The position numbers were made by a program, and so were the translations under genes. From the NCBI RefSeq assembly GCF_032062105.1, contig NW_026932781.1, forward strand, positions 1-52,163: 52,163 bases of DNA, given 5' to 3'. A model generated the notes under the pieces. The model was not told where the DNA came from and did no database searches. It was given only the letters and a program-made list of their open reading frames with translations. Shown in pieces: positions 3,953 through 50,892 of the stretch. The stretch's first letter is position 1, and every line of letters starts with the position of its first letter. Source of the DNA: Saccostrea cucullata. Lineage: Eukaryota.

Positions 3953-6726
3953 TTATTTATTTGAAACTCTCTTCAGTTTTGTTTCGAAAGCCCTGAACGT
4001 ACGGAAAGGAATATTTGATTTTAAACACTGTAATTTAAAGTGTTCGTATTTTTGGTGAACGCTTATCTTCTCCAAGCTTTGAGCATGCAGGAATTCCAGC
4101 TCTTGTGCCGACCAGGGAGCTTTATAAGATGTGGAAATCGGGTAGCAGGAGGAAGTTCTCCGAAGTCCTATGTTTTTATCAAAAAGAATGGGGTCATCAT
4201 CGCGATCACCATATTCATCAGTGACATTTCCAGGTAGTTCTGCGACTTCCTGTTCTGTTTCCTTTCTCTCGTCCTTTTTGTTAGTTTTCTGTTCTTCTCC
4301 TGTCAATATTTCCAGTTTATGTGGGATTGTAAAGTGCAAGCGATTCAACTGCAAATTGCGGAATCTAAAATTGGCCAATTGTAACTTGGACAAAATCTCT
4401 AATGCAATCAACTTGTTCTTGTGTAAGGGTAGATCAGTCATAAGAACCACTAGCCTGTCATATTCAACGAAATGGCCCTGCATCAAAAGAGCAATACAGC
4501 TTATGAACGTCATTGTTATCACTGTTTGATCTCTCTTTTCAACTTTCGAAGACACATTGATACCCAGGGAAGTATCTTTGGTGTTTTCTTTATTTTGCTT
4601 GGATACACAAGGCCCCGTTTTTCGAGTTCACCTTTAACTAGATCAGATATTGTAATTAGTGTAGCTTCGGTGATATCTGTCGATTCTTTGTCATACACAA
4701 CCGCCCAAAACTTGTCCTTAAAGGACCAAGTAAGGGTCATGTTTCCATGTTTGTCGTATGTGGTCACCGCGGGAAAATGTTTAAGCTCCAGTTCCAGTAA
4801 TCCGGCCTCTATGATCTCTGCCAATGGAAGGTTACTTTTATCCAAAAGTAAGTTCAAGCTGGGAAAAACCATTTGGGCATTAGTTCTCCTGTTTGTTGTT
4901 AGCAGTTTTACTAGCGACTTGAGGGTTACAGCTCCTACTGTATTAAAAGTGGTCTTACAGGACTTCATCTGTCTTAGGAAATCTTCAAACAGAACATAAC
5001 TAGCCATCTTGCCAGTTTCGTGCAAGTCATGTAGTAAGGCAACGACCAGATGTCTACCAATAACTCCGTAGCTGCCATCCAAGTGATCGTGTAATCCCAC
5101 TGATCGTGTTATCATCTTACTTATAGCCTCAGATGTTGTCCATATTTCTGGTGGTGGAATACTATATTCGTTTTGCATACAGGTTGAGTACACTTCTAAA
5201 GATAGGAATCCAAAGTGGTCACTCACACTCCGACTGGGTCCAAGAGCGCCGGGTCCCAGATTTATTGAGTATGTTGTGCTCCTTCCACAAAGTGGTTTTC
5301 CCCACAACATTTTTTCTGAGGCTAGTTCTAACTGGTAGGATTGCCAGGTAGCAAGCACATTTCCTGTTTTCTGATACTCGTTCAAAAGTTCCTGAAGTTC
5401 CTTGCAAATCCATAAGCCCAAATGTCTAATGCATGTGAGAATTTGACTGGGAAAAGGCACCAACATAGGACAACTTTCTAACAGAAATTCAAGATTTGTT
5501 ATATCAATAAAATCCAAGGCATGCAAATGGTCTGCAACAGAATCCTGTGAGACGACAAATTCTATCCTACATGCACTTTTCCTCAGCAATGTCCAGTTAC
5601 TTTGTAATGTTGATATATAATGCTCTGCGTCACGTAGAAATGCTTCCGCTGTCGATCGTGGGAAACACATACCCCCAACAATGCAGCCAGACACTGGATG
5701 ATATCGTCCATTTGGTTGCCGGTGTGGAATGTCAGCATAAAGCTGTACAAATTGAACATCTTGTGGAAAACGACAAATCTTCATCAAACAATCTTTAACA
5801 TCCATTGCTCTGCCATCTAAATTGCTCTGATAATTACCGCAGTCTGTGAACGATAAGCAGCTACTTAGTGTTCCTCTGTGGCCAATAACTTGTTCCAAAC
5901 CTACTGTGGACCAAAGCAGATCAACGTCTTCACTGTCTGACAAAATGTTTCCGGCAACATGAATAGTTGTACGCAGTATTAATTCAGTAAAGAAATCTGA
6001 CAAGGATAGCCCACATGTCATTTTTTCACCAAATCTGAAGCAAAATATGATTGGTCTTAAAAATCCACTTTGAGGCAGTTCGTCTAAAGATGTTTGCAAT
6101 GCTTCGAGTATGGGACAACAGTCATCAGGTAAAATGAACATTTTTCGAGCGTCATTAATGTCATTCTTTTGCAGAGTTCTCGTTGCCTCCCCCCTCAAGG
6201 CAAGTGTCATTAGTGAAGTTTTAAAACTTTCCCTCAGCTGGAAAAAGGTGGCTAAGGTTTGTTGTCTTACTTGCTGCTTTGATAACGCAACTGAATGGAT
6301 TTGGTGCACAGGAATTAATCCTATCCAACATTCCCATCCCCTCTCATAGAATAATTGAAAGCCTAGGCTGTTTGAAAATGTCATGAGTTCGCTTTTACTA
6401 TACTGTGGTAATTTTATATGCTTTTTCAAAACGCTTCTAACATTCCGTAAACTGGCATGATCGTGGGGAAACAGAGTAATATGTCTCACTGGCATTCTAA
6501 TTGCTGTCAAAGATTTTAATTCCAAAACGCATCCATCAATATCGAATGAATATCTCAACCATACTTCTCTGTCTACTTCATCGACTGTCAAACATCTTCC
6601 ATAAATTCGTTCATCCCTTCTTAAAAAGAGTTGAGGTGTTTCAGATAAAGAATTGTATAGCTTTGCTAAATTAAAGTTCTCTTGCACGGTTTCAGAAAAA
6701 GTTTGTACACTTTCATCAACGTCCAT
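3953..6726 (-). pseudogene. 928-aa unknown protein, copy 1, frameshifted
   Basis: A 13-bp deletion (ccatgtccatttt) near 4530 relative to copies 2 and 3 splits the ORF into 735-aa and 200-aa pieces. It could be an assembly error. Confidence 0.8.
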
Positions 6727-8037: not shown

Positions 8038-11000
8038 TTTCAGGGTTTATGCAGGGTTATCCCTTTAAACTTCATATCTGGTGTTCATATTCGGGTTGTA
8101 AGCTAAGTAGGAACCCTAACCCTAACCCTAACCCTAACCCTAACCCTAACCCTAACTCTAACCCTAACCCTTATTTTCATGGTTTCTGCAGGGTTATCAC
8201 TTTAAACTTCATATCTGGTGTTCATATTCGGGTTGTAAGCTAACGAGTGATGTTCAATCGAATGAACCCTCAACCCTGCCCGAACCCGGAAGTTAAAGAG
8301 TCAACCCTGAGTTAACCCTGATTTTCAGGGTTGTTGCAGGGTTATCCCTTTAAACTTCATATCTGGTGTTCATATTCGGGTTATAAGCTAAGGAGGTGAT
8401 GTTCAATCCAGAAACCCCTCAACCCTGCCCGAACCCGGAAGTTAAAGGGTCAACCCTGAGTTAACCCTCATTTTCAGGGTTTATGCAGGGTTATCCCTTT
8501 AAACTTCATATCTGGTGTTCATATTCGGGTTGTAAGCTAAGTAGGTAATGTTCAATCCAAAAAACCCTCAACCCTTCCCGAACCCGGAAGTTAAAGGGTC
8601 AACCCTGAGTTAACCCTGATTTTCAGGGGTTATGCAGGGTTATCCCTTTAAACTTTAAACCCTGATTTTTAGGGTTTATTCAGGGTTATCCCTTTAAACT
8701 TCATATGGTTCAATCCAAACAACCCTCAACCCTTCCCGAACCCGGAAGTTAAAGGGTCAAACCTGAGTTAACCCTGATTTTCAGGGTTTATGCAGGGTTA
8801 TCCCTTTAAACTTCATATCTGGTGTTCATATTTGGGTTGTAAGCTAAGTAGGTGATGGTTGATCGATTGACCCCTCAACCCTTCCCGAACCCGGAAGTTA
8901 AAGGGTCAACCCTGAGTTAACCCTGATTTTCAGGGTTTCTGCAGGGTTATCCCTTTAAACTTCATATCTGGTGTTCATATTCGGGTTGTAAGCTTAGTAC
9001 GTGATTGTTGATAGATTGACCCCTCAACCCTTCCCGAACCCGGAAGTTAAAGGGTCAACCCTGAGTTAACCCTGATTTTCAGGGTTTATGCAGGGTTATC
9101 CCTTTAAACTTCATATCTGGTGTTCATATTCGGGTTGTAAGCTAAGTAGGTGATGGGTTGTCAAGAACCCGGAAGTTAAAGGGTCAACCCTGAGTTAACC
9201 CTGATTTTCAGGGTTCAGGGTTATCCCTTTAAACTTCAATCTGGTGTTCATACGGGTTGTAAGCCTCAACCCTTCCCGAACCCGGAAGTTAAAGGGTCAA
9301 CCCTGAGTTAACCCTGATTTTCAGGGTTTATGCAGGGTTATCCCTTTAAACTTCATATCTGGTGTTCATATTCGGGTTGTAAGCTAAGTAGGTGATGTTG
9401 ATCAAAAAACCCTCAACCCTTCCCGAACCCGGAAGTTAAAGGCTCAACCCTGAGTTAACCCTGATTTTTAAGGTCCATTCAGGGTTATCCCTTTAAACTT
9501 CATATCTGGTGTTCATATTTGGGTTGTAAGCTAAGTAGGTGATGGTTGGTCGATTGACCTCTCAACCCTGCCCGAACCCGGAAGTTAAAGGGTCAACCCT
9601 GAGTTAACCCTGATTTTCAGGGTTTATGCAGGGTTATCCCTTTAAACTTCATATCTGGGTTATCCCTTTAAACTTCATATCAATGGTGTTCATATTCGGG
9701 TTGTAAGCTAAGTAGGTAAGTATCCCTTTAAACTTCATATCTGGTGTTCATATTCGGGTTGTAAGTTAAGTAGAGGATGCTTAATTGATTGACCCCTCAA
9801 CCCTTGCCGAACCCGGAAGTTAAAGGGTCAACCCTGAGTTAACCCTGATTTTCAGGGTTTATGCAGGGTTATCCCTTTAAACTTCATATCTGGTGTTCAT
9901 ATTCGGGTTGTAAGTTAAGTAGGTGATGGTTGTGACCCTCAACCCTGCCCGAACCCGGAAGTTAAAGGGTCAACCCTGAGTTAACCCTGATTTTCAGGGT
10001 TTATGCAGGGTTATCCCTTTAAACTTCATATCTGGTGTTCATATTCGGGTTGTAAGCTAAGTAGGTGATGGTTGATCGATTGACCCCTCAACCCTTCCCG
10101 AACCCGGAAGTTAAAGGGTCAACCCTGAGTTAACCCTGATTTTTAGGGTCCATTCAGGGTTATCCCTTTAAACTTCATATCTGGTGTTCATATTCGGGTT
10201 GTAAGCTAAGTAGGGGATGGTTGATCGATTGATTCCTCAACCCTTCCCGAACCCGGAAGTTAAAGGGTCAACCCTGAGTTAACCCTGATTGTCAGGGTTT
10301 ATGCTGGGTTATCCCTTTAAACTTCATAGCTAGTGTTCATATTCGGGTTGTAACTTAAGGAGATGATGTTCAATCGAATGAACCCTCAACCCTGCCCGAA
10401 CCCGGAAGTTAAAGGGTCAACCCTGAGTTAACCCTGATTTTCAGGGTTTATGCAGGGTTATCCCTTTAAACTTCATATCTGGTGTTCATATTCGGGTTGT
10501 AAGCTAAGGAGGTGATGGTTGATCGATTGACCCCTCAACCCTTCCCGAACCCGGAAGTTAAAGGGTCAACCCTGAGTTAACCCTGATTTTTAGGGTCCAT
10601 TCAGGGTTATCCCTTTAAACTTCATATCTGGTGTTCATATTTGGGTTGTAAGCTAAGTAGGTGATGGTTGATCGTTTGACCCCTCAACCCTGCCCGAACC
10701 CGGAAGTTAAAGGGTCAACCCTGAGTTAACCCTGATTTTTTCAGGGTTTATGCAGGGTTATCCCTTTAAACTTCATAGCTGGTGTTCATATTCGGGTTGT
10801 AACTTAAGGAGATGATGTTCAATCGAATGAACCCTCAACCCTGGCCTAACCCGGAAGTTAAAGGGTCAACCTTGAGTTAACCCTGATTTTCAGGATTTAT
10901 GCAGGGTTATCCCTGTAAACTTCATATCTGGTGTTCATATTCGGGTTGTAAGCTAATGAAGTGATGGTTGATCGATTGACCCCTCAACCCTTCCCGAACC

Positions 11001-11926
11001 CGGAAGTTAAAGGGTCAACCCTGAGTTAACCCTGATTTCTAGGTTCCATTCAGGGTTATCCCTTTAAACTTCATATCTGGTGTTCATATTTGGGTTGTGA
11101 GCTATATCCCTTTAAACTTCATATCTGGTGTTCATAGTTGTGATCGATGTTCAATCCAAAAAACCCTCAACCCTTCCCGAACCCGGAAGTTAAAGGGTCA
11201 ACCCTGAGTTAACCCTGATTTTCAGGGTTTATGCAGGGTTATCCCTTTAAACTTTATAGTTAGTGTTCATATTCGGGTTGTAACTTAAGGAGATGATGTT
11301 CAATCGAATGAACCCTCAACCCTGGCCCAACCCGGAAGTTAAAGGGTTTACCCTGAGTTAACTCTGATTTTCAGGGTTTATGCAGGGTTATCCCTTCAAA
11401 CTTCATATCTGGCGTTTATATTCGGGTTGTGAGTTAAGATGATGATGTTCAATCGAATGAACCCTCAACCCTACCCCAACCCGGAAGTTAAAGGGTTAAC
11501 CCTGAGTTAACCCTGATTTTCAGGGTTGAACCAGGGTTATCCTTTTAAAGTTCATATCTGGTGTTCATATTAGGGTTGTAAGTTAAGGAGATGATGATTA
11601 ATGGATTGAACCCTCAACCCTTCCCAAAACCGGAAGTTAAGGGGACAACCCTGAGTTAACCCTGATTTTCAGGGTTGAACCAGGGTTATCCCTCTAAACT
11701 TCATATCTGATGTTCATCTACGGGTTGTAAGTTAAGGAGAAGTTAAAGGGTCAACCCTGAGTTTACCCTGATTTTTAGGGTCCTTCGACGGTTATTCCTT
11801 TAAACTTCATATCTGGTGTTTATATTTGGGTTGTTATATAAGTAGATATAAGTAGATGATGTTTAATAGAATGAACCTCAAGCCTTCCCGAACCCAGAAT
11901 TTAAATGGATGAGTCCGAGTTTACCC
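8038..11926. repeat. 149-bp satellite array, copy 2
   Basis: Same monomer as 1-970; several monomers are truncated or garbled. Confidence 0.95.
8112..8171 (+). repeat. Telomeric (CCCTAA)~10 tract inside the satellite
   Basis: aaccctaaccctaaccct... with one ctctaa variant. Confidence 0.9.
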
Positions 11927-12850: not shown

Positions 12851-13647
12851 TCATTTTAGACTATCTCCCACCAGCTCTTCAAGTTCCTTCTGGAGTCTTG
12901 CTTTCTCTCTTTGCGCTCTTTTCTTCTTCACGATATTTTTCACCTTCTCTTGTAAATAGAGTGCAAAATCGCCCTTAATGTCCGGCTTCCACTCTGGGGC
13001 CCAAATTCTATCCCGCACTCCCTCCTCGATCAGTTTTTGGATATCCACCAATTTTGCTATTTAACACGAAATAACAGTTAACTTTTTCAAAATACTTTAT
13101 AACAAGGGAATTATTCAAAAACGTCAGCCAACACAATCATTTTTATTCTCATTAATTAATATCCTTTCCCGTTAATCTACAGAGAATATGTTATACTTAC
13201 TTGGTGTATTTGTCTCCTGCCCCTACCCAATAATGGATATATGCAAGCTGAAGTTGGCTGACTTTCTCTTTCTCTGGACGGTAGGTGATGCCCTCTAATA
13301 CTTCCTCGACTTTCTCTCGCATGTCTTCTTTCAAATCATCCACCGACAAGGCAACTTCTTCTTCTTCCTCCTCCTCCTCACTCTCCTCTTCTATTAACTT
13401 TCTTTTAACTCCCTTTCCGGACTCAACTTCACTTTCTAGGGTCTCCACCCTGACTTTAACTTCTTTCAATTCATTACTAAACTTTACCATAGTCTCCATA
13501 ACGAATTCTCGCAAACCTTCATACTTTGCGTCGTTTTCATCTATCAAAATGAAAATGGTATGTGAAGTTAAAATATGCTTGCTATAGAAAATATCTTTCC
13601 AGAAACATGTAAACTACAATACCTTCTGATAGATTTCCTTTCTCCAT
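12851..13647 (-). pseudogene. Small spliced gene, copy 2, frameshifted
   Basis: A 2-bp deletion near 13220 (ctcctgcccctacc versus ctcctgcacccctacc) shifts the frame before the last intron. Confidence 0.7.
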
Positions 13648-14906: not shown

Positions 14907-17693
14907 TTATTTATTTGAAACTCTCTTCAGTTTTGTTTCGAAAGCCCTGAACGTACGGAAAGGAATATTTGATTTTAAACACTGTAATTTAAAGTGTTCG
15001 TATTTTTGGTGAACGCTTATCTTCTCCAAGCTTTGAGCATGCAGGAATTCCAGCTCTTGTGCCGACCAGGGAGCTTTATAAGATGTGGAAATCGGGTAGC
15101 AGGAGGAAGTTCTCCGAAGTCCTATGTTTTTATCAAAAAGAATGGGGTCATCATCGCGATCACCATATTCATCAGTGACATTTCCAGGTAGTTCTGCGAC
15201 TTCCTGTTCTGTTTCCTTTCTCTCGTCCTTTTTGTTAGTTTTCTGTTCTTCTCCTGTCAATATTTCCAGTTTATGTGGGATTGTAAAGTGCAAGCGATTC
15301 AACTGCAAATTGCGGAATCTAAAATTGGCCAATTGTAACTTGGACAAAATCTCTAATGCAATCAACTTGTTCTTGTGTAAGGGTAGATCAGTCATAAGAA
15401 CCACTAGCCTGTCATATTCAACGAAATGGCCCTGCATCAAAAGAGCAATACAGCTTATGAACGTCATTGTTATCACTGTTTGATCCATGTCCATTTTCTC
15501 TCTTTTCAACTTTCGAAGACACATTGATACCCAGGGAAGTATCTTTGGTGTTTTCTTTATTTTGCTTGGATACACAAGGCCCCGTTTTTCGAGTTCACCT
15601 TTAACTAGATCAGATATTGTAATTAGTGTAGCTTCGGTGATATCTGTCGATTCTTTGTCATACACAACCGCCCAAAACTTGTCCTTAAAGGACCAAGTAA
15701 GGGTCATGTTTCCATGTTTGTCGTATGTGGTCACCGCGGGAAAATGTTTAAGCTCCAGTTCCAGTAATCCGGCCTCTATGATCTCTGCCAATGGAAGGTT
15801 ACTTTTATCCAAAAGTAAGTTCAAGCTGGGAAAAACCATTTGGGCATTAGTTCTCCTGTTTGTTGTTAGCAGTTTTACTAGCGACTTGAGGGTTACAGCT
15901 CCTACTGTATTAAAAGTGGTCTTACAGGACTTCATCTGTCTTAGGAAATCTTCAAACAGAACATAACTAGCCATCTTGCCAGTTTCGTGCAAGTCATGTA
16001 GTAAGGCAACGACCAGATGTCTACCAATAACTCCGTAGCTGCCATCCAAGTGATCGTGTAATCCCACTGATCGTGTTATCATCTTACTTATAGCCTCAGA
16101 TGTTGTCCATATTTCTGGTGGTGGAATACTATATTCGTTTTGCATACAGGTTGAGTACACTTCTAAAGATAGGAATCCAAAGTGGTCACTCACACTCCGA
16201 CTGGGTCCAAGAGCGCCGGGTCCCAGATTTATTGAGTATGTTGTGCTCCTTCCACAAAGTGGTTTTCCCCACAACATTTTTTCTGAGGCTAGTTCTAACT
16301 GGTAGGATTGCCAGGTAGCAAGCACATTTCCTGTTTTCTGATACTCGTTCAAAAGTTCCTGAAGTTCCTTGCAAATCCATAAGCCCAAATGTCTAATGCA
16401 TGTGAGAATTTGACTGGGAAAAGGCACCAACATAGGACAACTTTCTAACAGAAATTCAAGATTTGTTATATCAATAAAATCCAAGGCATGCAAATGGTCT
16501 GCAACAGAATCCTGTGAGACGACAAATTCTATCCTACATGCACTTTTCCTCAGCAATGTCCAGTTACTTTGTAATGTTGATATATAATGCTCTGCGTCAC
16601 GTAGAAATGCTTCCGCTGTCGATCGTGGGAAACACATACCCCCAACAATGCAGCCAGACACTGGATGATATCGTCCATTTGGTTGCCGGTGTGGAATGTC
16701 AGCATAAAGCTGTACAAATTGAACATCTTGTGGAAAACGACAAATCTTCATCAAACAATCTTTAACATCCATTGCTCTGCCATCTAAATTGCTCTGATAA
16801 TTACCGCAGTCTGTGAACGATAAGCAGCTACTTAGTGTTCCTCTGTGGCCAATAACTTGTTCCAAACCTACTGTGGACCAAAGCAGATCAACGTCTTCAC
16901 TGTCTGACAAAATGTTTCCGGCAACATGAATAGTTGTACGCAGTATTAATTCGGTAAAGAAATCTGACAAGGATAGCCCACATGTCATTTTTTCACCAAA
17001 TCTGAAGCAAAATATGATTGGTCTTAAAAATCCACTTTGAGGCAGTTCGTCTAAAGATGTTTGCAATGCTTCGAGTATGGGACAACAGTCATCAGGTAAA
17101 ATGAACATTTTTCGAGCGTCATTAATGTCATTCTTTTGCAGAGTTCTCGTTGCCTCCCCCCTCAAGGCAAGTGTCATTAGTGAAGTTTTAAAACTTTCCC
17201 TCAGCTGGAAAAAGGTGGCTAAGGTTTGTTGTCTTACTTGCTGCTTTGATAACGCAACTGAATGCATTTGGTGCACAGGAATTAATCCTATCCAACATTC
17301 CCATCCCCTCTCATAGAATAATTGAAAGCCTAGGCTGTTTGAAAATGTCATGAGTTCGCTTTTACTATACTGTGGTAATTTTATATGTTTTTTCAAAACG
17401 CTTCTAACATTCCGTAAACTGGCATGATCGTGGGGAAACAGAGTAATATGTCTCACTGGCATTCTAATTGCTGTCAAAGATTTTAATTCCAAAACGCATC
17501 CATCAATATCGAATGAATATCTCAACCATACTTCTCTGTCTACTTCATCGACTGTCAAACATCTTCCATAAATTCGTTCATCCCTTCTTAAAAAGAGTTG
17601 AGGTGTTTCAGATAAAGAATTGTATAGCTTTGCTAAATTAAAGTTCTCTTGCACGGTTTCAGAAAAAGTTTGTACACTTTCATCAACGTCCAT
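14907..17693 (-). CDS. 928-aa protein of unknown family with Myb/SANT-like C-terminus, copy 2 (intact)
   Basis: 2787-nt uninterrupted ORF in AT-rich DNA. Copy 4 differs by many synonymous changes. The C-terminus WSAQELEFL...RTFRAFETKLKR resembles a Myb fold. Confidence 0.9.
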   Translation of the reverse strand: MDVDESVQTFSETVQENFNLAKLYNSLSETPQLFLRRDERIYGRCLTVDEVDREVWLRYSFDIDGCVLELKSLTAIRMPVRHITLFPHDHASLRNVRSVLKKHIKLPQYSKSELMTFSNSLGFQLFYERGWECWIGLIPVHQMHSVALSKQQVRQQTLATFFQLRESFKTSLMTLALRGEATRTLQKNDINDARKMFILPDDCCPILEALQTSLDELPQSGFLRPIIFCFRFGEKMTCGLSLSDFFTELILRTTIHVAGNILSDSEDVDLLWSTVGLEQVIGHRGTLSSCLSFTDCGNYQSNLDGRAMDVKDCLMKICRFPQDVQFVQLYADIPHRQPNGRYHPVSGCIVGGMCFPRSTAEAFLRDAEHYISTLQSNWTLLRKSACRIEFVVSQDSVADHLHALDFIDITNLEFLLESCPMLVPFPSQILTCIRHLGLWICKELQELLNEYQKTGNVLATWQSYQLELASEKMLWGKPLCGRSTTYSINLGPGALGPSRSVSDHFGFLSLEVYSTCMQNEYSIPPPEIWTTSEAISKMITRSVGLHDHLDGSYGVIGRHLVVALLHDLHETGKMASYVLFEDFLRQMKSCKTTFNTVGAVTLKSLVKLLTTNRRTNAQMVFPSLNLLLDKSNLPLAEIIEAGLLELELKHFPAVTTYDKHGNMTLTWSFKDKFWAVVYDKESTDITEATLITISDLVKGELEKRGLVYPSKIKKTPKILPWVSMCLRKLKREKMDMDQTVITMTFISCIALLMQGHFVEYDRLVVLMTDLPLHKNKLIALEILSKLQLANFRFRNLQLNRLHFTIPHKLEILTGEEQKTNKKDERKETEQEVAELPGNVTDEYGDRDDDPILFDKNIGLRRTSSCYPISTSYKAPWSAQELEFLHAQSLEKISVHQKYEHFKLQCLKSNIPFRTFRAFETKLKRVSNK

Positions 17694-17810
17694 CTGAAAT
17701 TAGAAAAACATTGTTTTTAGAATGGTACTCTTTGCAAAAGATGTAAAATCCAGAAAAAATTCATGTGCTGAAAATTATACTAACAATATCAAAAAATCCT
17801 GCATAAAAAT

Positions 17811-18302
17811 AACCCTGGGTTAAACCCGTGTATATTCTGGGTTAGACTTGGGTTTATCCTGGGTTAGACCCGGGTATATCCTGGATTATACCTGGGTTAT
17901 ACCCAGGTATATCCTGGGTTATACCTGGGTATCTCTCGGGTTATACCCGGGTTAATCCTGGGTTATACCCGGGTTTATCCTGGGTTATACCCGAGTATAT
18001 CTTGGGTTATACCCGGGTTTATCCAGGGTTAAACCCAGGTATATCTCGGGTTATACCCGGGTTAATCCTTGGTTATACCCGGGTTTATCCTGGGTTATAC
18101 CCGGGTTTATCCTGGGTTATACCCGGGTTTATCCTGGGTTAAACCCAGGTATATCTTGGGTTAAACCCGGGTATACCTGGGGTTTAAACCGGGGTATACC
18201 TAGGGTACCCGGGTTACCCGGGTATACCCGGGGTTAACCCGGGTATACCTAGGGTATACCCGGGTTAAACCCGGGTATACCAAGGGTATACCTGGGTATA
18301 CC
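17811..18302. repeat. 11/22-bp palindromic minisatellite, copy 2
   Basis: Same unit as copy 1, different copy number. Confidence 0.95.
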
Positions 18303-18771
18303 ACTGGTGTTCATACCCAGCATGATTTTAATTTTAATCAATGACCTTAATTTCAATCAATATGCTCTTATTGTATAATTAAAAGGAATATATCATAATT
18401 ACTTATTGAAAATACACTTTTATTTACCAGGTATAACTGAAAAATACAAAAAATATACATAAACTTTGTCCTTTTAAACACAAATAATTCAATATACTTT
18501 CGTAAATTTTGAATGCTAAAATAAGGCAAAGTTATGCATAACTTCTAAAAAAAGATGTCGTTGTTTTCTCAAAAAACACATAATAATTAGCAATTAAAAA
18601 AAATCAATTGAAATATTACCTTAGATTAAGAAAATCACCCATTAAATACACCACAGTATATAAGCGTCTGAATCGAAAGAAATCCAGCAACAAAATACCT
18701 ACTTTCACAATAAAATGATTGACAATCACGTGATAAAATAGGCGGAGTTCCGCATTCCCGCACCCGCATCA

Positions 18772-18920: not shown

Positions 18921-21900
18921 TCCCTTTAAACCCTAACCCTAACCCTAACCCTATAGGTAATGTTCACCAAAAAACCCTCAACCCTAACCCTAACCCTAAT
19001 TTTTAGGGTTTAAGGGTTATCCCTTTAAACCTGGTGTTCATATTTGGGTTGTAACCTAAGTAGGTAATGTTCAATCCAAAAAACCCTCAACCCTAACCCG
19101 GAAGTTAAAGGGTCAACCCTAACTTAACCCTGATTTTAACCCTAAGTTATCCCTTTAAACCCTGGTTTTCATATTTGGGATGTACCCCTCAACCCTAAGG
19201 GTTATGAGTTAACCCCTTTAAACAGGGTTATCTTTAAACTTCATATCTGGTGTTCATATTCGGGTTATAAGCTAAGGAGGTGATGGTTGATCGATTGACC
19301 CCTCAACCCTGCCCGAACCCGGAAGTTAAAGGGTCAACCCTGGTATCTTAAACTTTAACCCTAGGTGATGGTTCTTAAGGGTTATCCCTTTAAACCCTAT
19401 CCTTGTTCTTGCCCGAACCCGGAAGTTAAAGGGTCAACCCTGAGTTAACACTGATTTTTAGGGTCCATTCAGGGTGTTCCCTTTAAACTTCATATCTGTT
19501 GTTCATATTTGGGTCGTGAGCTAAGTTGTCGATGTTCAATCCAAAAAACCCTCAACCCTGCCCGAACCCGGAAGTTAAAGGGTCAACCCTGAGTTAACCC
19601 TGATTTTCAGGGTTTATGCAGGGTTATCCCTTTAAACTTCATATCTGGTGTTCATATTTGGGTTGTAAGCTAAGTAGGTGATGGTTAATCGATTGACCCC
19701 TCAACCCTGCCCGAACCCGGAAGTTAAAGGGTCAACCCTGCGTTAACCCTGATTTTTAGGGTCCATTCAGGGTTATCCCTTTAAACTTCATCTCTGGTGT
19801 TCATATTCGGTGTTCATATTAACCCTGGGTTGTTATCCCTTAAGTTGTAAGCTAAGTAGATGTTCAATCCAAAAAACCCTCAACCCTTCCCGAACCCGGA
19901 AGTTAAAGGGTCAACCCTGAGTTAACCCTGATTTTTAGGGTCCATTCAGGGTTATCCCTTTAAACTTCATATCTGGTGTTCATATTTGGGTTGTAAGCTA
20001 AGTAGGTGATGTTCAATCCAAAAAACCCTCAACCCTTCCCCATTTCATTAAAGGGTAAAACTCTCTATGAAAAAAAATCAGTAAAATGACCTACAATTAT
20101 CACGTGATTTTTTTGGGCATTAAGAGCAACTTACCAGGTAGTTCAATAAAAGCCCCATTACCCTACCCGTTCAAAGCTGAATCAATGCTAATTTCTTTGT
20201 AAGAACCAAAAAATTAAATTATTCTTGTTTACGAAATTAAATTATTATTTTTTACTTACACCCTGATTTTCAGGGTTGAATAGCAGTAATTAATCCCTTT
20301 AAACTTCATATCTGGTGTTCATATTCGGGTTTAAAGGGTCAACCCTGGTTAACCCTAACCCGAACCCGGAAGTTAAAGGGTCAACCCTGAGTTAACCCTG
20401 ATTTTCAGGGTTTCTGCAGGGTTATCCCTTTAAACTTCATATCTGGTGTTTATATTCGGGTTGTAAGCTAAGTAGGTGATGGTTGATCGATTGACCCCTC
20501 AACCCTGCCCGAACCCGGAAGTTAAAGGGTCAACCCTGAGTTAACCCTGATTTTCAGGGTTTATGCAGGGTTATCCCTTTAAACTTCATATCTGGTGTTC
20601 ATATTCGGGTTGTAAGCTAAGTAGGTGATGTTCAATCCAAAAAACCCTCAACCCTTCCCGAACCCGGAAGTTAAAGGGTCAACCCTGAGTTAACCCTGAT
20701 TTTTAGGGTCCATTCAGGGTTATCCCTTTAAACTTCATATCTGGTGTTCATATTCGGGTTGTAAGCCCAAAAAACCCTCAACCCTTCCCGAACCCGGAAG
20801 TTAAAGGGTCAACCCTGAGTTAACCCTGATTTTCAGGGTTTATGCAGGGTTATCCCTTTAAACTTCATATCTGGTGTTCATATTCGGGTTGTAAGCTAAG
20901 TAGGTGATGGTTGATCGATTGACCCCTCAACCTTTCCCGAACCCGGAAGTTAAAGGGTCAACCCTGAGTTAACCCTGATTTTTAGGGTCCATTCAGGGTT
21001 ATCCCTTTAAACTTCATATCTGGTGTTCATATTTGGGTTGTGAGCTAAGTAGTCAATGTTCAATCCAAAAAACCCTCAACCCTTCCCGAACCCGGAAGTT
21101 AAAGGGTCAACCCTGAGTTAACCCTGATTTTCAGGGTTTATGCAGGGTTATCCCTTTAAACTTCATATCTGGTGTTCATATTCGGGTTGTAAGCTAAGGA
21201 GATGATGTTCAATCGAATGAACCCTCTGAGTTAACCCCCAGGGTTATCCCTTTAAACTTCATATCTGGTGTTCCGATGAACCCGGAAGTTAAAGGGTCAA
21301 CCCTGAGTTAACCCTGATTTTCAGGGTTTATGCAGGGTTATCCCTTTAAACTTCATATCTGGTGTTCATATTCGGGTTGTAAGCTAAGGAGGTGATGGTT
21401 GATCGATTGACCCCTCAACCCTTCCCGAACCCGGAAGTTAAAGGGTCAACCCTGAGTTAACCCTGATTTTTAGGGTCCATTCAGGGTTATCCCTTTAAAC
21501 TTCATATCTGGTGTTCATATTTGGGTTGTAAGCTAAGTAGGTGATGTTCAATCCAAAAAACCCTCAACCCTGCCCGAACCCGGAAGTTAAAGGGTCAACC
21601 CTGAGTTAACCCTGATTTTCAGGGTTTATGCAGGGTTATCCCTTTAAACTTCATAGCTGGTGTTCATATTCGGGTTGTAACTTAAGGAGATGATGTTCAA
21701 TCGAATGAACCCTCAACCCTGGCCTAACCCGGAAGTTAAAGGGTCAACCTTGAGTTAACCCTGATTTTCAGGATTTATGCAGGGTTATCCCTGTAAACTT
21801 CATATCTGGTGTTCATATTCGGGTTGTAAGCTAATGAAGTGATGGTTGATCGATTGACCCCTCAACCCTTCCCGAACCCGGAAGTTAAAGGGTCAACCCT

Positions 21901-25749: not shown

Positions 25750-28536
25750 TTATTTATTTGAAACTCTCTTCAGTTTTGTTTCGAAAGCCCTGAACGTACG
25801 GAAAGGAATATTTGATTTTAAACACTGTAATTTAAAGTGTTCGTATTTTTGGTGAACGCTTATCTTCTCCAAGCTTTGAGCATGCAGGAATTCCAGCTCT
25901 TGTGCCGACCAGGGAGCTTTATAAGATGTGGAAATCGGGTAGCAGGAGGAAGTTCTCCGAAGTCCTATGTTTTTATCAAAAAGAATGGGGTCATCATCGC
26001 GATCACCATATTCATCAGTGACATTTCCAGGTAGTTCTGCGACTTCCTGTTCTGTTTCCTTTCTCTCGTCCTTTTTGTTAGTTTTCTGTTCTTCTCCTGT
26101 CAATATTTCCAGTTTATGTGGGATTGTAAAGTGCAAGCGATTCAACTGCAAATTGCGGAATCTAAAATTGGCCAATTGTAACTTGGACAAAATCTCTAAT
26201 GCAATCAACTTGTTCTTGTGTAAGGGTAGATCAGTCATAAGAACCACTAGCCTGTCATATTCAACGAAATGGCCCTGCATCAAAAGAGCAATACAGCTTA
26301 TGAACGTCATTGTTATCACTGTTTGATCCATGTCCATTTTCTCTCTTTTCAACTTTCGAAGACACATTGATACCCAGGGAAGTATCTTTGGTGTTTTCTT
26401 TATTTTGCTTGGATACACAAGGCCCCGTTTTTCGAGTTCACCTTTAACTAGATCAGATATTGTAATTAGTGTAGCTTCGGTGATATCTGTCGATTCTTTG
26501 TCATACACAACCGCCCAAAACTTGTCCTTAAAGGACCAAGTAAGGGTCATGTTTCCATGTTTGTCGTATGTGGTCACCGCGGGAAAATGTTTAAGCTCCA
26601 GTTCCAGTAATCCGGCCTCTATGATCTCTGCCAATGGAAGGTTACTTTTATCCAAAAGTAAGTTCAAGCTGGGAAAAACCATTTGGGCATTAGTTCTCCT
26701 GTTTGTTGTTAGCAGTTTTACTAGCGACTTGAGGGTTACAGCTCCTACTGTATTAAAAGTGGTCTTACAGGACTTCATCTGTCTTAGGAAATCTTCAAAC
26801 AGAACATAACTAGCCATCTTGCCAGTTTCGTGCAAGTCATGTAGTAAGGCAACGACCAGATGTCTACCAATAACTCCGTAGCTGCCATCCAAGTGATCGT
26901 GTAATCCCACTGATCGTGTTATCATCTTACTTATAGCCTCAGATGTTGTCCATATTTCTGGTGGTGGAATACTATATTCGTTTTGCATACAGGTTGAGTA
27001 CACTTCTAAAGATAGGAATCCAAAGTGGTCACTCACACTCCGACTGGGTCCAAGAGCGCCGGGTCCCAGATTTATTGAGTATGTTGTGCTCCTTCCACAA
27101 AGTGGTTTTCCCCACAACATTTTTTCTGAGGCTAGTTCTAACTGGTAGGATTGCCAGGTAGCAAGCACATTTCCTGTTTTCTGATACTCGTTCAAAAGTT
27201 CCTGAAGTTCCTTGCAAATCCATAAGCCCAAATGTCTAATGCATGTGAGAATTTGACTGGGAAAAGGCACCAACATAGGACAACTTTCTAACAGAAATTC
27301 AAGATTTGTTATATCAATAAAATCCAAGGCATGCAAATGGTCTGCAACAGAATCCTGTGAGACGACAAATTCTATCCTACATGCACTTTTCCTCAGCAAT
27401 GTCCAGTTACTTTGTAATGTTGATATATAATGCTCTGCGTCACGTAGAAATGCTTCCGCTGTCGATCGTGGGAAACACATACCCCCAACAATGCAGCCAG
27501 ACACTGGATGATATCGTCCATTTGGTTGCCGGTGTGGAATGTCAGCATAAAGCTGTACAAATTGAACATCTTGTGGAAAACGACAAATCTTCATCAAACA
27601 ATCTTTAACATCCATTGCTCTGCCATCTAAATTGCTCTGATAATTACCGCAGTCTGTGAACGATAAGCAGCTACTTAGTGTTCCTCTGTGGCCAATAACT
27701 TGTTCCAAACCTACTGTGGACCAAAGCAGATCAACGTCTTCACTGTCTGACAAAATGTTTCCGGCAACATGAATAGTTGTACGCAGTATTAATTCGGTAA
27801 AGAAATCTGACAAGGATAGCCCACATGTCATTTTTTCACCAAATCTGAAGCAAAATATGATTGGTCTTAAAAATCCACTTTGAGGCAGTTCGTCTAAAGA
27901 TGTTTGCAATGCTTCGAGTATGGGACAACAGTCATCAGGTAAAATGAACATTTTTCGAGCGTCATTAATGTCATTCTTTTGCAGAGTTCTCGTTGCCTCC
28001 CCCCTCAAGGCAAGTGTCATTAGTGAAGTTTTAAAACTTTCCCTCAGCTGGAAAAAGGTGGCTAAGGTTTGTTGTCTTACTTGCTGCTTTGATAACGCAA
28101 CTGAATGCATTTGGTGCACAGGAATTAATCCTATCCAACATTCCCATCCCCTCTCATAGAATAATTGAAAGCCTAGGCTGTTTGAAAATGTCATGAGTTC
28201 GCTTTTACTATACTGTGGTAATTTTATATGTTTTTTCAAAACGCTTCTAACATTCCGTAAACTGGCATGATCGTGGGGAAACAGAGTAATATGTCTCACT
28301 GGCATTCTAATTGCTGTCAAAGATTTTAATTCCAAAACGCATCCATCAATATCGAATGAATATCTCAACCATACTTCTCTGTCTACTTCATCGACTGTCA
28401 AACATCTTCCATAAATTCGTTCATCCCTTCTTAAAAAGAGTTGAGGTGTTTCAGATAAAGAATTGTATAGCTTTGCTAAATTAAAGTTCTCTTGCACGGT
28501 TTCAGAAAAAGTTTGTACACTTTCATCAACGTCCAT
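25750..28536 (-). CDS. 928-aa unknown protein, copy 3 (intact)
   Basis: Translation matches copy 2 in the ORF track. Confidence 0.9.
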   Translation of the reverse strand: MDVDESVQTFSETVQENFNLAKLYNSLSETPQLFLRRDERIYGRCLTVDEVDREVWLRYSFDIDGCVLELKSLTAIRMPVRHITLFPHDHASLRNVRSVLKKHIKLPQYSKSELMTFSNSLGFQLFYERGWECWIGLIPVHQMHSVALSKQQVRQQTLATFFQLRESFKTSLMTLALRGEATRTLQKNDINDARKMFILPDDCCPILEALQTSLDELPQSGFLRPIIFCFRFGEKMTCGLSLSDFFTELILRTTIHVAGNILSDSEDVDLLWSTVGLEQVIGHRGTLSSCLSFTDCGNYQSNLDGRAMDVKDCLMKICRFPQDVQFVQLYADIPHRQPNGRYHPVSGCIVGGMCFPRSTAEAFLRDAEHYISTLQSNWTLLRKSACRIEFVVSQDSVADHLHALDFIDITNLEFLLESCPMLVPFPSQILTCIRHLGLWICKELQELLNEYQKTGNVLATWQSYQLELASEKMLWGKPLCGRSTTYSINLGPGALGPSRSVSDHFGFLSLEVYSTCMQNEYSIPPPEIWTTSEAISKMITRSVGLHDHLDGSYGVIGRHLVVALLHDLHETGKMASYVLFEDFLRQMKSCKTTFNTVGAVTLKSLVKLLTTNRRTNAQMVFPSLNLLLDKSNLPLAEIIEAGLLELELKHFPAVTTYDKHGNMTLTWSFKDKFWAVVYDKESTDITEATLITISDLVKGELEKRGLVYPSKIKKTPKILPWVSMCLRKLKREKMDMDQTVITMTFISCIALLMQGHFVEYDRLVVLMTDLPLHKNKLIALEILSKLQLANFRFRNLQLNRLHFTIPHKLEILTGEEQKTNKKDERKETEQEVAELPGNVTDEYGDRDDDPILFDKNIGLRRTSSCYPISTSYKAPWSAQELEFLHAQSLEKISVHQKYEHFKLQCLKSNIPFRTFRAFETKLKRVSNK

Positions 28537-35579: not shown

Positions 35580-38367
35580 TTATTTATTTGAAACTCTCTT
35601 CAGTTTTGTTTCGAAAGCCCTGAACGTACGGAAAGGAATATTTGATTTTAAACACTGTAATTTAAAGTGTTCGTATTTTTGGTGAACGCTTTTCTTCTCC
35701 AAGCTTTGAGCATGCAGGAATTCCAGCTCTTGTGCCGACCAGGGAGCTTTATAAGATGTGGAAATCGGGTAGCAGGAGGAAGTTCTCCGAAGTCCTATGT
35801 TTTTATCAAAAAGAATGGGGTCATCATCGCGATCACCATATTCATCAGTGACATTTCCAGGTAGTTCTGCGACTTCCTGTTCTGTTTCCTTTCTCTCGTC
35901 CTTTTTGTTAGTTTTCTGTTCTTCTCCTGTCAATATTTCCAGTTTATGTGGGATATGTAAAGTGCAAGCGATTCAACTGCAAATTGCGGAATCTAAAATT
36001 GGCTAATTGTAACTTGGACAAAATCTCTAATGCAATCAACTTGTTCTTGTGTAAGGGTAGATCAGTCATAAGAACCACTAGCCTGTCATAATCAACGAAA
36101 TGGCCCTGCATCAAAAGAGCAATACAGCTTATGAACGTCATTGTTATCACTCTTTGATCCATGTCCATTTTCTCTCTTTTCAACTTTCGAAGACACATTG
36201 ATACCCAGGGAAGTATCTTTGGTGTTTTCTTTATTTTGCTTGGATACACAAGGCCCCGTTTTTCGAGTTCACCTTTAACTAGATCAGATATTGTTATTAG
36301 TGTAGCTTCGGTGATATCTGTCGATTCTTTGTCATACACAACCGCCCAAAACTTGTCCTTAAAGGACCAAGTAAGGGTCATGTTTCCATGTTTGTCGTAT
36401 GTGGTCACCGCGGGAAAATGTTTAAGCTCCAGTTCCAGTAATCCGGCCTCTATGATCTCTGCCAATGGAAGGTTACTTTTATCCAAAAGTAAGTTCAAGC
36501 TGGGAAAAACCATTTGGGCATTAGTTCTCCTGTTTGTTGTTAGCAGTTTTACTAGCGACTTGAGGGTTACAGCTCCTACTGTATTAAAAGTGGTCTTACA
36601 GGACTTCATCTGTCTTAGGAAATCTTCAAACAGAACATAACTAGCCATCTTGCCAGTTTCGTGCAAGTCATGTAGTAAGGCAACGACCAGATGTCTACCA
36701 ATAACTCCGTAGCTGCCATCCAAGTGATCGTGTAATCCCACTGATCGTGTTATCATCTTACTTATAGCCTCAGATGTTGTCCATATTTCTGGTGGTGGAA
36801 TACTATATTCGTTTTGCATACAGGTTGAGTACACTTCTAAAGATAGGAATCCAAAGTGGTCACTCACACTCCGACTGGGTCCAAGAGCGCCGGGTCCCAG
36901 ATTTATTGAGTATGTTGTGCTCCTTCCACAAAGTGGTTTTCCCCACAACATTTTTTCTGAGGCTAGTTCTAACTGGTAGGATTGCCAGGTAGCACACACA
37001 TTTCCTGTTTTCTGATACTCGTTCAAAAGTTCCTGAAGTTCCTTGCAAATCCATAAGCCCAAATGTCGAATGCATGTGAGAATTTGACTGGGAAAAGGCA
37101 CCAACATAGGACAACTTTCTAACAGAAATTCAAGATTTGTTATATCAATAAAATCCAAGGCATGCAAATGGTCTGCAACAGAATCCTGTGAGACGACAAA
37201 TTCTATCCTACATGCACTTTTCCTCAGCAATGTCCAGTTACTTTGTAATGTTGATATATAATGCTCTGCGTCACGTAGAAATGCTTCCGCTGTCGATCGT
37301 GGGAAACACATACCCCCAACAATGCAGCCAGACACTGGATGATATCGTCCATTTGGTTGCCGGTGTGGAATGTCAGCATAAAGCTGTACAAATTGCACAT
37401 CCTGTGGAAAACGACAAATCTTCATCAAACAATCTTTAACATCCATTGCTCTGCCATCTAAATTGCTCTGATAATTACCGCAGTCTGTGAACGATAAGCA
37501 GCTACTTAGTGTTCCTCTGTGGCCAATAACTTGTTCCAAACCTGCTGTGGACCAAAGCAGATCAACGTCTTCACTGTCTGACAAAATGTTTCCGGCAACA
37601 TGAATAGTTGTACGCAGTATTAATTCGGTATAGAAATCTGACAAGGATAGCCCACATGTCATTTTTTCACCAAATCTGAAGCAAAATATGATTGGTCTTA
37701 AAAATCCACTTTGAGGCAGTTCGTCTAAAGATGTTTGCAATGCTTCGAGTATGGGACAACAGTCATCAGGTAAAATGAACATTTTTCGAGCGTCATTAAT
37801 GTCATTCTTTTGCAGAGTTCTCGTAGCCTCCCCCCTCAAGGCAAGCGTCATTAGTGAAGTTTTAAAACTCTCCCTCAGTTGGAAAAAGGTGGCTAAGGTT
37901 TGTTGTCTTACTTGCTGCTTTGATAACGCAACTGAATGCATTTGGTGCACAGGAATTAATCCTATCCAACATTCCCATCCCCTCTCATAGAATAATTGAA
38001 AGCCTAGGCTGTTTGAAAATGTCATGAGCTCGCTTTTACTATACTGTGGTAATTTTATATGTTTTTTCAAAACGCTTCTAACATTCCGTAAACTGGCATG
38101 ATCGTGGGGAAACAGAGTAATATGTCTCACTGGCATTCTAATTGCTGTCAAAGATTTTAATTCCAAAACGCATCCATCAATATCGAATGAATATCTCAAC
38201 CATACTTCTCTGTCTACTTCATCGACTGTCAAACATCTTCCATAAATTCGTTCATCCCTTCTTAAAAAGAGTTGAGGTGTTTCAGATACAGAATTGTATA
38301 GCTTTGCTAAATTAAAGTTCTCTAGCACGGTTTCAGAAAAAGTTTGTACACTTTCTTCAACGTCCAT
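35580..38367 (-). pseudogene. 928-aa unknown protein, copy 4, frameshifted
   Basis: A 1-bp insertion near 35955 (gggatatgtaaa versus gggattgtaaa) gives an 807-aa product that lacks the Myb-like tail. Confidence 0.8.
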
Positions 38368-50450: not shown

Positions 50451-50892
50451 GATTAGCACATGTGACGGAACAAATTCTGCTTCGAACCTCACTTCACCTC
50501 TAACTACCTTAAAACCAGCAAAAACTAATATGCACTTACTAACCGCATCGCGATATTCTTTACATCCAGTTACGTGACTTGCACCATTGCTTACTCTGTT
50601 TTTACCAGAATGGTCCAACTCACTGAGACAGGTCCAACTCCTTTTAGTACTTTTCCGAGGTCCCAAACAACCAGAATCCAGCTGATTCTCTACAACATAG
50701 AACAAACACAACAGAAAATGGGAAAATACAAAATAAAACAGCATGTAGAAAACATTGACCAAGCAGAGAAAATTTTCAACAAAAAGAGAAAAATGTCAGT
50801 TTTTTTTTTAACTTAAAAAAATTATACAAATATTTTTGAAAACTTTGTATAGTTGTTACATAAAACAAAAATTAATGTTCTTAGGGAATCTT

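Follow-up and report, generated by a model that had tools for sequence, protein, structure and literature searches.

A Myb-like helix-turn-helix domain at the C-terminus of a predicted Rep_trans-like protein from a probable telomere-associated mobile element of Saccostrea cucullata

The stretch of Saccostrea cucullata DNA analysed here, referred to as the window, comprises positions 1 to 52,163 of contig NW_026932781.1 (assembly GCF_032062105.1; 52,163 nt), and contains four copies of a long open reading frame (ORF), ORF1, arranged in head-to-tail units of about 10.8 kb. Copy 2 (14907..17693, minus strand) is intact and encodes a protein of 928 aa that belongs to no Pfam family, and copy 3 (25750..28536, minus strand) is identical to it. 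Copies 1 (3953..6726, minus strand) and 4 (35580..38367, minus strand) are frameshifted, by a 13-base deletion near codon 736 and a 1-base insertion near codon 804 respectively. The tandem copies are nearly identical (99.2-99.97 %), with the innermost, copy 4, being the most diverged (20 substitutions), as expected if copies are added outward. Telomere repeats lie at the unit boundaries, with (CCCTAA)7 between copies 1 and 2 (8114..8155, plus strand) and two (CCCTAA)3 runs between copies 2 and 3 (18931..18999, plus strand); a satellite array of a 149-mer (8165..11740) forms the variable end of copy 2. Synonymous changes are enriched between copies (10 of 20 and 7 of 14, against 21 % expected), and ORF1 is thus under purifying selection. 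Our subject is the element represented by these units and in particular the C-terminal module of ORF1 (aa 873-928; 14907..15077, minus strand), which reads KAPWSAQELEFL...KYEHFK...FRTFRAFETKLKRVSNK and which an initial annotation of the window had read as a Myb/SANT-like domain that could bind telomere repeats or the element's own arrays. That annotation also pointed to the removal of the module by the frameshifts in copies 1 and 4, an observation that carries no weight since any frameshift removes a C-terminal domain; the module codons of these two copies stay open in another frame and are 100 % and 99 % identical.

The gene is transcribed at a low level. Coverage by oligo-dT reads is thin in all three runs (57, 2 and 14 reads over 5.9 kb). 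A transcript contig of 3.2 kb spans the whole of ORF1, and its loose end matches an exon further upstream, on the far side of a GT-AG intron. This intron (17694..18619, minus strand) lies in the 5′ untranslated region with the ATG directly after the acceptor AG; it is given by one record, the loose end matching 18629-18644, and a renewed examination of the first exon failed to confirm it, yielding one 128-base record in one of four runs. Within the intron is a GGGTTA-rich, partly palindromic 22-mer minisatellite (17814..18318). The first exon and the sequence beside the fixed end of the element occupy 18620..18760 (minus strand), and in sister copies on other contigs the same end directly follows TTAGGG repeats.

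No Pfam family was found for the complete protein, for the module by itself or for 27 homologues, and a sequence search of the PDB returned nothing but a designed repeat protein. There are, however, 446 relatives at an E-value of 0.001 among 50 %-identity representatives, and most of the full-length ones are 900-960 aa long and end at the module. In the 30 clusters examined, most of which are without names, the named members come from Crassostrea angulata and C. gigas (in a cluster with an 81-82 % identical representative), Dreissena and four teleost fishes, and all are described as 'uncharacterized'. Judging from these sequences, the module is conserved at the C-terminus of a large family of proteins of about 920 aa in bivalves and fish, a family made up of many copies and broken relics with a patchy set of named hosts. 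One homologue (P0009) is annotated on a 10-kb contig of a Sedimenticola metagenome-assembled genome and is likely to be host DNA in a symbiont bin.

An AlphaFold2 model of the full protein, built on an alignment of 117 sequences, has a mean predicted local distance difference test score (pLDDT) of 93. In this model the module forms three helices (878-888, 894-907 and 915-927; pLDDT for the block 92-96), of which the last two constitute a helix-turn-helix (HTH) of the Myb/SANT/homeodomain-like kind with a basic third helix, so that the fold sought in the initial annotation is indeed predicted. Its placement of the module at the C-terminus behind a charged, low-complexity linker is likewise borne out; the linker (aa 815-852; 15138..15251, minus strand) is acidic, with 14 D/E and 6 K/R residues, and disordered, the pLDDT falling below 50 at 819-823 and 826-844. 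Among 57 full-length homologues, 56 retain W876 and 53 retain R913, and the mean share of the top residue is 0.43 in the module and 0.45 in the core described below, as opposed to 0.19 in the linker. Structural matches to aa 869-928 are exclusively of HTH types (winged helix, transposase DNA-binding, homeodomain, GARP-Myb and SANT) and are tied at Z scores of 5-7: Orc1/Cdc6 7.0, TnsB 6.5, MuA 6.2, MATalpha2 5.9, LUX Myb 5.7 and the DMAP1 SANT domain 5.3, with SANT domains giving 5.2-5.3 against aa 874-928. TRF1, TRF2 and Rap1 have no entry among the 50 matches listed for the full model, which does not exclude a resemblance to them. Neighbours of the module in a language-model comparison are Myb-clan clusters at 0.75-0.84, under the 0.9 mark, and Pfam matches of individual modules are weak (PF00249 in 1 of 50 members, E-value 0.0074; PF13873 in 1 of 50, 0.01; Cdc6_C in 6 of 50, best 0.02), as is the match of the module profile to c-Myb (E-value 0.08). 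An HTH fold is thus almost certain, and the modelled structure identifies the module as a Myb/homeodomain-like HTH, with no closer family found; there is also good reason to expect a DNA-binding role for it.

Whether the module is of the telomere-binding type is a separate matter. TRF-type Myb domains are described as carrying the telobox, VxxKDxxR, in helix 3 (PMC6175992). None of 83 modules of the ORF1 family contains this motif, none of the 83 contains KD[KR]W, and of the three spaced tryptophans characteristic of TRF/telobox domains only W876 is present, with L, Y or R at helix 3 position +9. We aligned helix 3 on its constant positions, R0, F+5 and K+8, with the telobox register taken from the published consensus and its context. 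The telobox positions in this register, +3, +6, +7 and +10, have entropies of 3.5, 2.7, 3.7 and 3.8 bits and rank among the least conserved of the helix, three of them (+3, +7 and +10, 3.5-3.8 bits) being the most variable of all. They are occupied by R/E/T/K, N/R/A/L and W/K/Y/K in the element subfamilies A, B and C respectively, all three of which are found at TTAGGG. Taken alone, the module has the look of an ordinary HTH and is no telobox; the three-helix fold and Myb-clan resemblance of the initial annotation stand, but its suggestion of TRF1/2-type recognition is not supported.

Of greater consequence is what surrounds the module. In the N-terminal half of the protein, aa 45-430 (16404..17561, minus strand) are predicted to form a core of the Rep_trans/TBP (TATA-binding protein) fold. 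Folded separately, this core has a pLDDT of 96. Among 48,161 chains, the rolling-circle initiator RepSTK1 (4CIJ) tied for first place (Z 5.4, 186 residues, chain 1-251 of 267; root-mean-square deviation 5.1), and in a second comparison it was again first (Z 5.6, 179 residues; deviation 5.0-5.1 over both); further matches are RepDE (4CWC; Z 4.6, 167 residues) and, over about 150 residues each, four chains of TBP (Z 4.2-4.9), none of which aligns over as many core residues as RepSTK1. Five residues, D62, H256, Y330, R387 and E389, are invariant across all 57 full-length homologues and lie on strands of the model, Y330 on strand 324-331. In RepD the metal ligands D46, D142 and E214, the nucleophile Y191 and R212 are reported to lie on strands (PMC4797284), and the ORF1 residues parallel RepC D46 (SFD), D142 (DLAFD), Y191 (FIRIY) and R212/E214 (RVE) in order and context, a pairing that was not made by superposition. 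An N-terminal aspartate, a tyrosine on a strand and RxE thus occur in the Rep_trans order in all 57 proteins. We consider that the core probably has tyrosine chemistry of the Rep_trans kind.

The wider distribution of the gene connects it with telomere repeats. The core as query gave 44 matches in the host genome, and, of the 29 other contigs, 28 were examined at the DNA level. Near the gene, telomere tracts were present in all eight contigs of a first batch and within 10 kb in 10 of the 20 loci of a second, compared with none of 17 arbitrary control stretches (138 kb; p 0.0006). Fixed ends, located by internal end motifs, adjoin TTAGGG in register in 9 of 9 cases for subfamily A, 10 of 10 for B, 12 of 12 for C-type ends and 22 of 27 for a non-coding type. 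The opposite end varies in position within a GGGTT-rich satellite, stopping at GGG and followed by the tract. Tracts are confined to one strand in all 20 contigs that bear them, and in four contigs of 73-122 kb they lie in the last 4-14 kb and point toward that end. The subfamilies are 28-66 % identical and each has its own minisatellite and its own fixed end. A mobile element tied to telomere repeats is very likely, and the telomere connection made in the initial annotation is upheld for the element, though reading of the repeats by the module in the manner of TRF1/2 is unsupported. No end-to-end terminal inverted repeats were found in B, and only 9-base chance matches in A, and a cut-and-paste DNA transposon was rejected on this ground; three fixed ends examined for hairpins showed none of significance (z −1.5, −1.4 and +0.6). 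In one A-like gene (L022, C1101:11605-14383) a TTAGGG tract interrupts the sequence immediately ahead of the Myb module, and another element end follows.

These observations suggest, at about an even chance, that the Myb-like HTH ends what is likely to be a Rep_trans-fold tyrosine nickase of a likely mobile element, and that it likely keeps the enzyme attached to the end or the arrays of the element itself. The proposal starts from the observed fold model, residue conservation, spliced transcript, tandem units, ends fixed at TTAGGG and single polarity within each contig. Y330 would nick the donor at the fixed end and remain linked to the 5′ phosphate, and the 3′-OH of a telomeric G strand would then attack the phosphotyrosine bond to give the exact joint between TTAGGG and element. 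Rep_trans enzymes are described as holding the 5′ end by a phosphotyrosine bond that a free 3′-OH can attack (PMC5714925), and the joint, in which the TTAGGG strand runs 5′ to 3′ into the fixed end, is such as this attack would leave. Copying would stop at variable points within the GGGTT-rich satellite, new TTAGGG would be added or joined there, and repeated additions would produce head-to-tail arrays of mixed families pointing to the chromosome end. More broadly, we would give even weight to the existence of a new superfamily of DNA transposons in animals, represented in bivalves and fish, in which a Rep_trans-fold tyrosine nickase, so far known solely from prokaryotic plasmids, phages and conjugative elements, ligates the element end onto telomeric TTAGGG 3′ ends and so extends chromosome ends without reverse transcription, the C-terminal Myb-like domain serving in end or target recognition and non-autonomous units travelling as passengers.

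What the module itself reads can be argued in more than one way. By analogy, the element's own arrays or own end, the second option of the initial annotation, fits better than TTAGGG, because the positions that probably read bases differ although the target is constant, and because pT181 Reps have a separate C-terminal HTH domain that is reported to select the cognate origin (PMC4797284). The arrays in question are rich in telomere-like words, as was claimed, but poor in true repeats: the 149-mer array has 4 exact TTAGGG/CCCTAA in 3569 bases and the 22-mer array has none in 505. Recognition of the own end or arrays is accordingly only a little short of an even prospect. A module that reads TTAGGG is rather doubtful, and a plain DNA clamp slightly more so. 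The corresponding account of the whole system, in which the same element inserts into telomere tracts steered by a module that reads duplex TTAGGG, is on the unlikely side, even though fixed ends adjoin TTAGGG, TRF1/2 likewise have a single C-terminal Myb behind a flexible linker, the language-model neighbours include a Rap1-Myb cluster (0.76), and a TRF1 Myb domain fused to a nuclease is reported to target TTAGGG (PMC2868851). The conserved R913, K921 and R924 could read the repeat in a non-telobox way. Set against this are the lack of a telobox in any of the 83 modules, the difference at +3/+6/+7/+10 between subfamilies A, B and C that have the repeat in common, and the retention of the module in two homologues (L069 and L073) that lie beside (TAGG)n and (CA)n and near which no tract was seen. 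The contigs of these two and of a third distant homologue (L066) terminate in (TAGG)n or (CA)n or contain (GAT)n, a hint that distant homologues may use other simple-repeat targets.

Three further explanations were weighed. Since Rep_trans enzymes are replication initiators, the element could be an episome-like replicon that carries short telomere repeats in its own end and integrates by recombination, the protein acting as its replication initiator and the Myb domain binding its origin, and two interior copies (on C18978 and C19166) do retain roughly two repeat units at their fixed ends; but the tract at the same end ranges from a few to more than 60 units with differing flanks, the gene is spliced and of host type, and no capsid, helicase or polymerase gene was seen in the units, all of which make this reading unlikely. 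Only marginally more improbable is passive duplication of subtelomeric DNA by recombination between tracts, as with the Y′ elements of yeast, the protein being that of a host or domesticated gene. The near-identity of the tandem copies with tracts between them and the low-level spliced expression would suit such a history, which does not readily accommodate divergent subfamilies each with its own fixed end, an end motif common to the non-coding units, five invariant residues of catalytic type, or the many copies, broken relics and patchy named hosts of the family. Finally, the protein could be a non-catalytic mimic of transcription factors that combines TBP-like, cyclin-like and SANT-like folds, because TBP chains match the core, a helical part at aa 679-810 (15264-15659) weakly matches cyclin folds (Z 5.5-5.7) and SANT domains match aa 874-928. 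All these Z values are at background level, however, the TBP sheet is present in Rep_trans itself (PMC4797284) and RepSTK1 gives the longer alignment, and the invariant D/H/Y/R/E fit catalysis; we regard this as very improbable.

A number of results nevertheless weigh against the nickase and its telomeric mode of addition. The core Z scores of 5-6 are modest, within the common range of the tool and under 8; Foldseek with both models found nothing at an E-value of 0.001 in the PDB or viral sets; and an hhalign comparison with RepC, using a single-sequence template, was not significant (probability 0.2 %). PF02486 matched none of 27 family members, a language-model atlas search with the core gave no usable match and tblastn of the core in phages found none. 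The canonical Rep_trans motifs I (RxD), II (T/SxY/ExG) and III (YxKxxE) are replaced by TxHxA, no clear counterpart and YADxxH, with H for D142 and T/S for R140, although archaeal Rep-Arvir proteins are reported to be likewise unrecognisable by sequence and also to depart from motif III (PMC13107129). As for the locus, 10 of the 20 second-batch loci have no tract of three units within 10 kb; of these, several are degraded interior copies or are truncated where the contig stops, two show a short repeat at a fixed end, and in one the tracts lie at a greater distance. One subfamily E gene has no tract in 16 kb upstream, only 3 of 9 metagenome loci outside the host genome show four repeat units near the gene, and two metagenome loci end in other simple repeats. 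No contig finishes in a long terminal telomere, so a position at the chromosome end is itself deduced, and there is assembly noise at junctions near tracts. Subfamilies A and D have nearly the same helix 3 but different arrays, which weakens the idea of own-array recognition, and in subfamily C the gene is reversed, running against the G strand (C13018:6227-26594, L017-L019); the proposed mechanism accounts for neither pattern. Pieces of the subfamily C unit are inverted on C5640.

The closest known relatives in design are the Rep_trans initiators (PF02486; pT181 RepC/RepD and RepSTK1) and Rep-Arvir (DUF7845), which share the ordered D ... (D/H)xA ... Y ... RxE on strands and a separate HTH behind the catalytic domain, and whose TBP-like curved sheet is the best, though modest, whole-domain match. 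ORF1 differs from them in having an animal host and an intron, in its length of 928 aa with about 400 extra residues, in H at the second metal ligand and the lack of a sequence-level match, and in its location in a chromosomal, telomere-bounded unit. TRF1, TRF2 and telobox Myb proteins resemble it in the single C-terminal three-helix domain, opening W..EE..L, after a flexible linker, but ORF1 lacks VxxKDxxR, has one of the three tryptophans and shows no TRFH domain match. With Helitrons, Replitrons and IS91 the element has in common an expected tyrosine chemistry, the lack of terminal inverted repeats, tandem copies, and one exact and one loose end. In these elements, according to PMC5714925, the nuclease is of the HUH type and its tyrosine lies on a helix, whereas ORF1 has no HUH family match and no helicase, places its tyrosine on a strand and is found at telomere repeats; a Helitron or Replitron identity was discarded for want of an HUH match and the strand position of Y330.

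Element arrays with telomere tracts between them are also formed by telomere-specific retrotransposons, of which HeT-A/TART and SART are examples. Those of MoTeR are described as lying between telomere tracts, with truncated copies followed by tracts (10.1101/845669). The present unit differs in having neither reverse transcriptase nor apurinic/apyrimidinic endonuclease (the reverse transcriptase at 44228-46174 belongs to a separate element), and its gene keeps an intron; a TRAS-type non-LTR (long terminal repeat) retrotransposon was rejected because both enzymes are missing. The analogy with TRAS drawn in the initial annotation is correspondingly weak, ORF1 having no match to a reverse transcriptase or endonuclease family, and telomere recognition by TRAS1 is reported to lie in its endonuclease domain. 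The Y′ elements of yeast are tandem subtelomeric units with short telomere tracts between them and a long ORF, as here, and encode a helicase; the present units instead form several old subfamilies with fixed ends of their own and a nickase-like core.

The module likely points to a telomere-bound element of a new class, equipped with a Rep_trans-like enzyme, and no earlier description of such an element was found in the literature searched, the coverage of which did not extend to Repbase and subscription journals. Telomere-specific elements have been described as retrotransposons. Eukaryotic rolling-circle transposons have been described as HUH enzymes, and the Rep_trans fold is listed in PMC13107129 from bacteria and archaea only. 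If the proposal is correct, a second, unrelated nickase chemistry would operate in eukaryotic transposition, the Rep_trans superfamily would reach the third domain of life, and there would be a DNA-based route to subtelomeric arrays; several telomere-like satellites would also find an explanation, as would the multicopy oyster genes, numbering in the dozens, that are annotated as 'uncharacterized'.

Every subfamily carries a small second ORF encoding a coiled coil and a short helical domain (in the window at 12854-13550; also L011:4517-5134 and L018:7032-7709), with no Pfam family above the cut-off. The window version (12854..13550, minus strand) is in two pieces, 13200-13550 and 12854-13060, with a coiled coil, an acidic run and a short helical part, and is covered by oligo-dT reads. 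The B and C versions are homologous (E-value 2e-10) but that of A has no detectable homology to them, and A's second ORF is in tandem with ORF1 rather than convergent. A comparison with Rfam gave no match. Between telomere repeats at 39860..41840 are non-coding pieces related to pieces on many other contigs and likely to be non-autonomous passengers; these and similar units (L091, L092) share an end motif of the TATAGGG-N6-CGAAGAT type with the C-type end, and on C21901 non-coding units form a 4-kb tandem array of likely non-autonomous partners. Directly after a CCCTAA tract is a long interspersed nuclear element (LINE; 41998-46913) with endonuclease and reverse transcriptase, the ORF2 of which is split over three frames and the ORF1 of which (42293-43597) ends in a NADAR domain (E-value 7e-23); it may represent an old chromosome end or a LINE inserted into telomere repeats. 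A Gypsy-type LTR fragment at 47855-50744 encodes a SCAN-like gag, a protease and an integrase.

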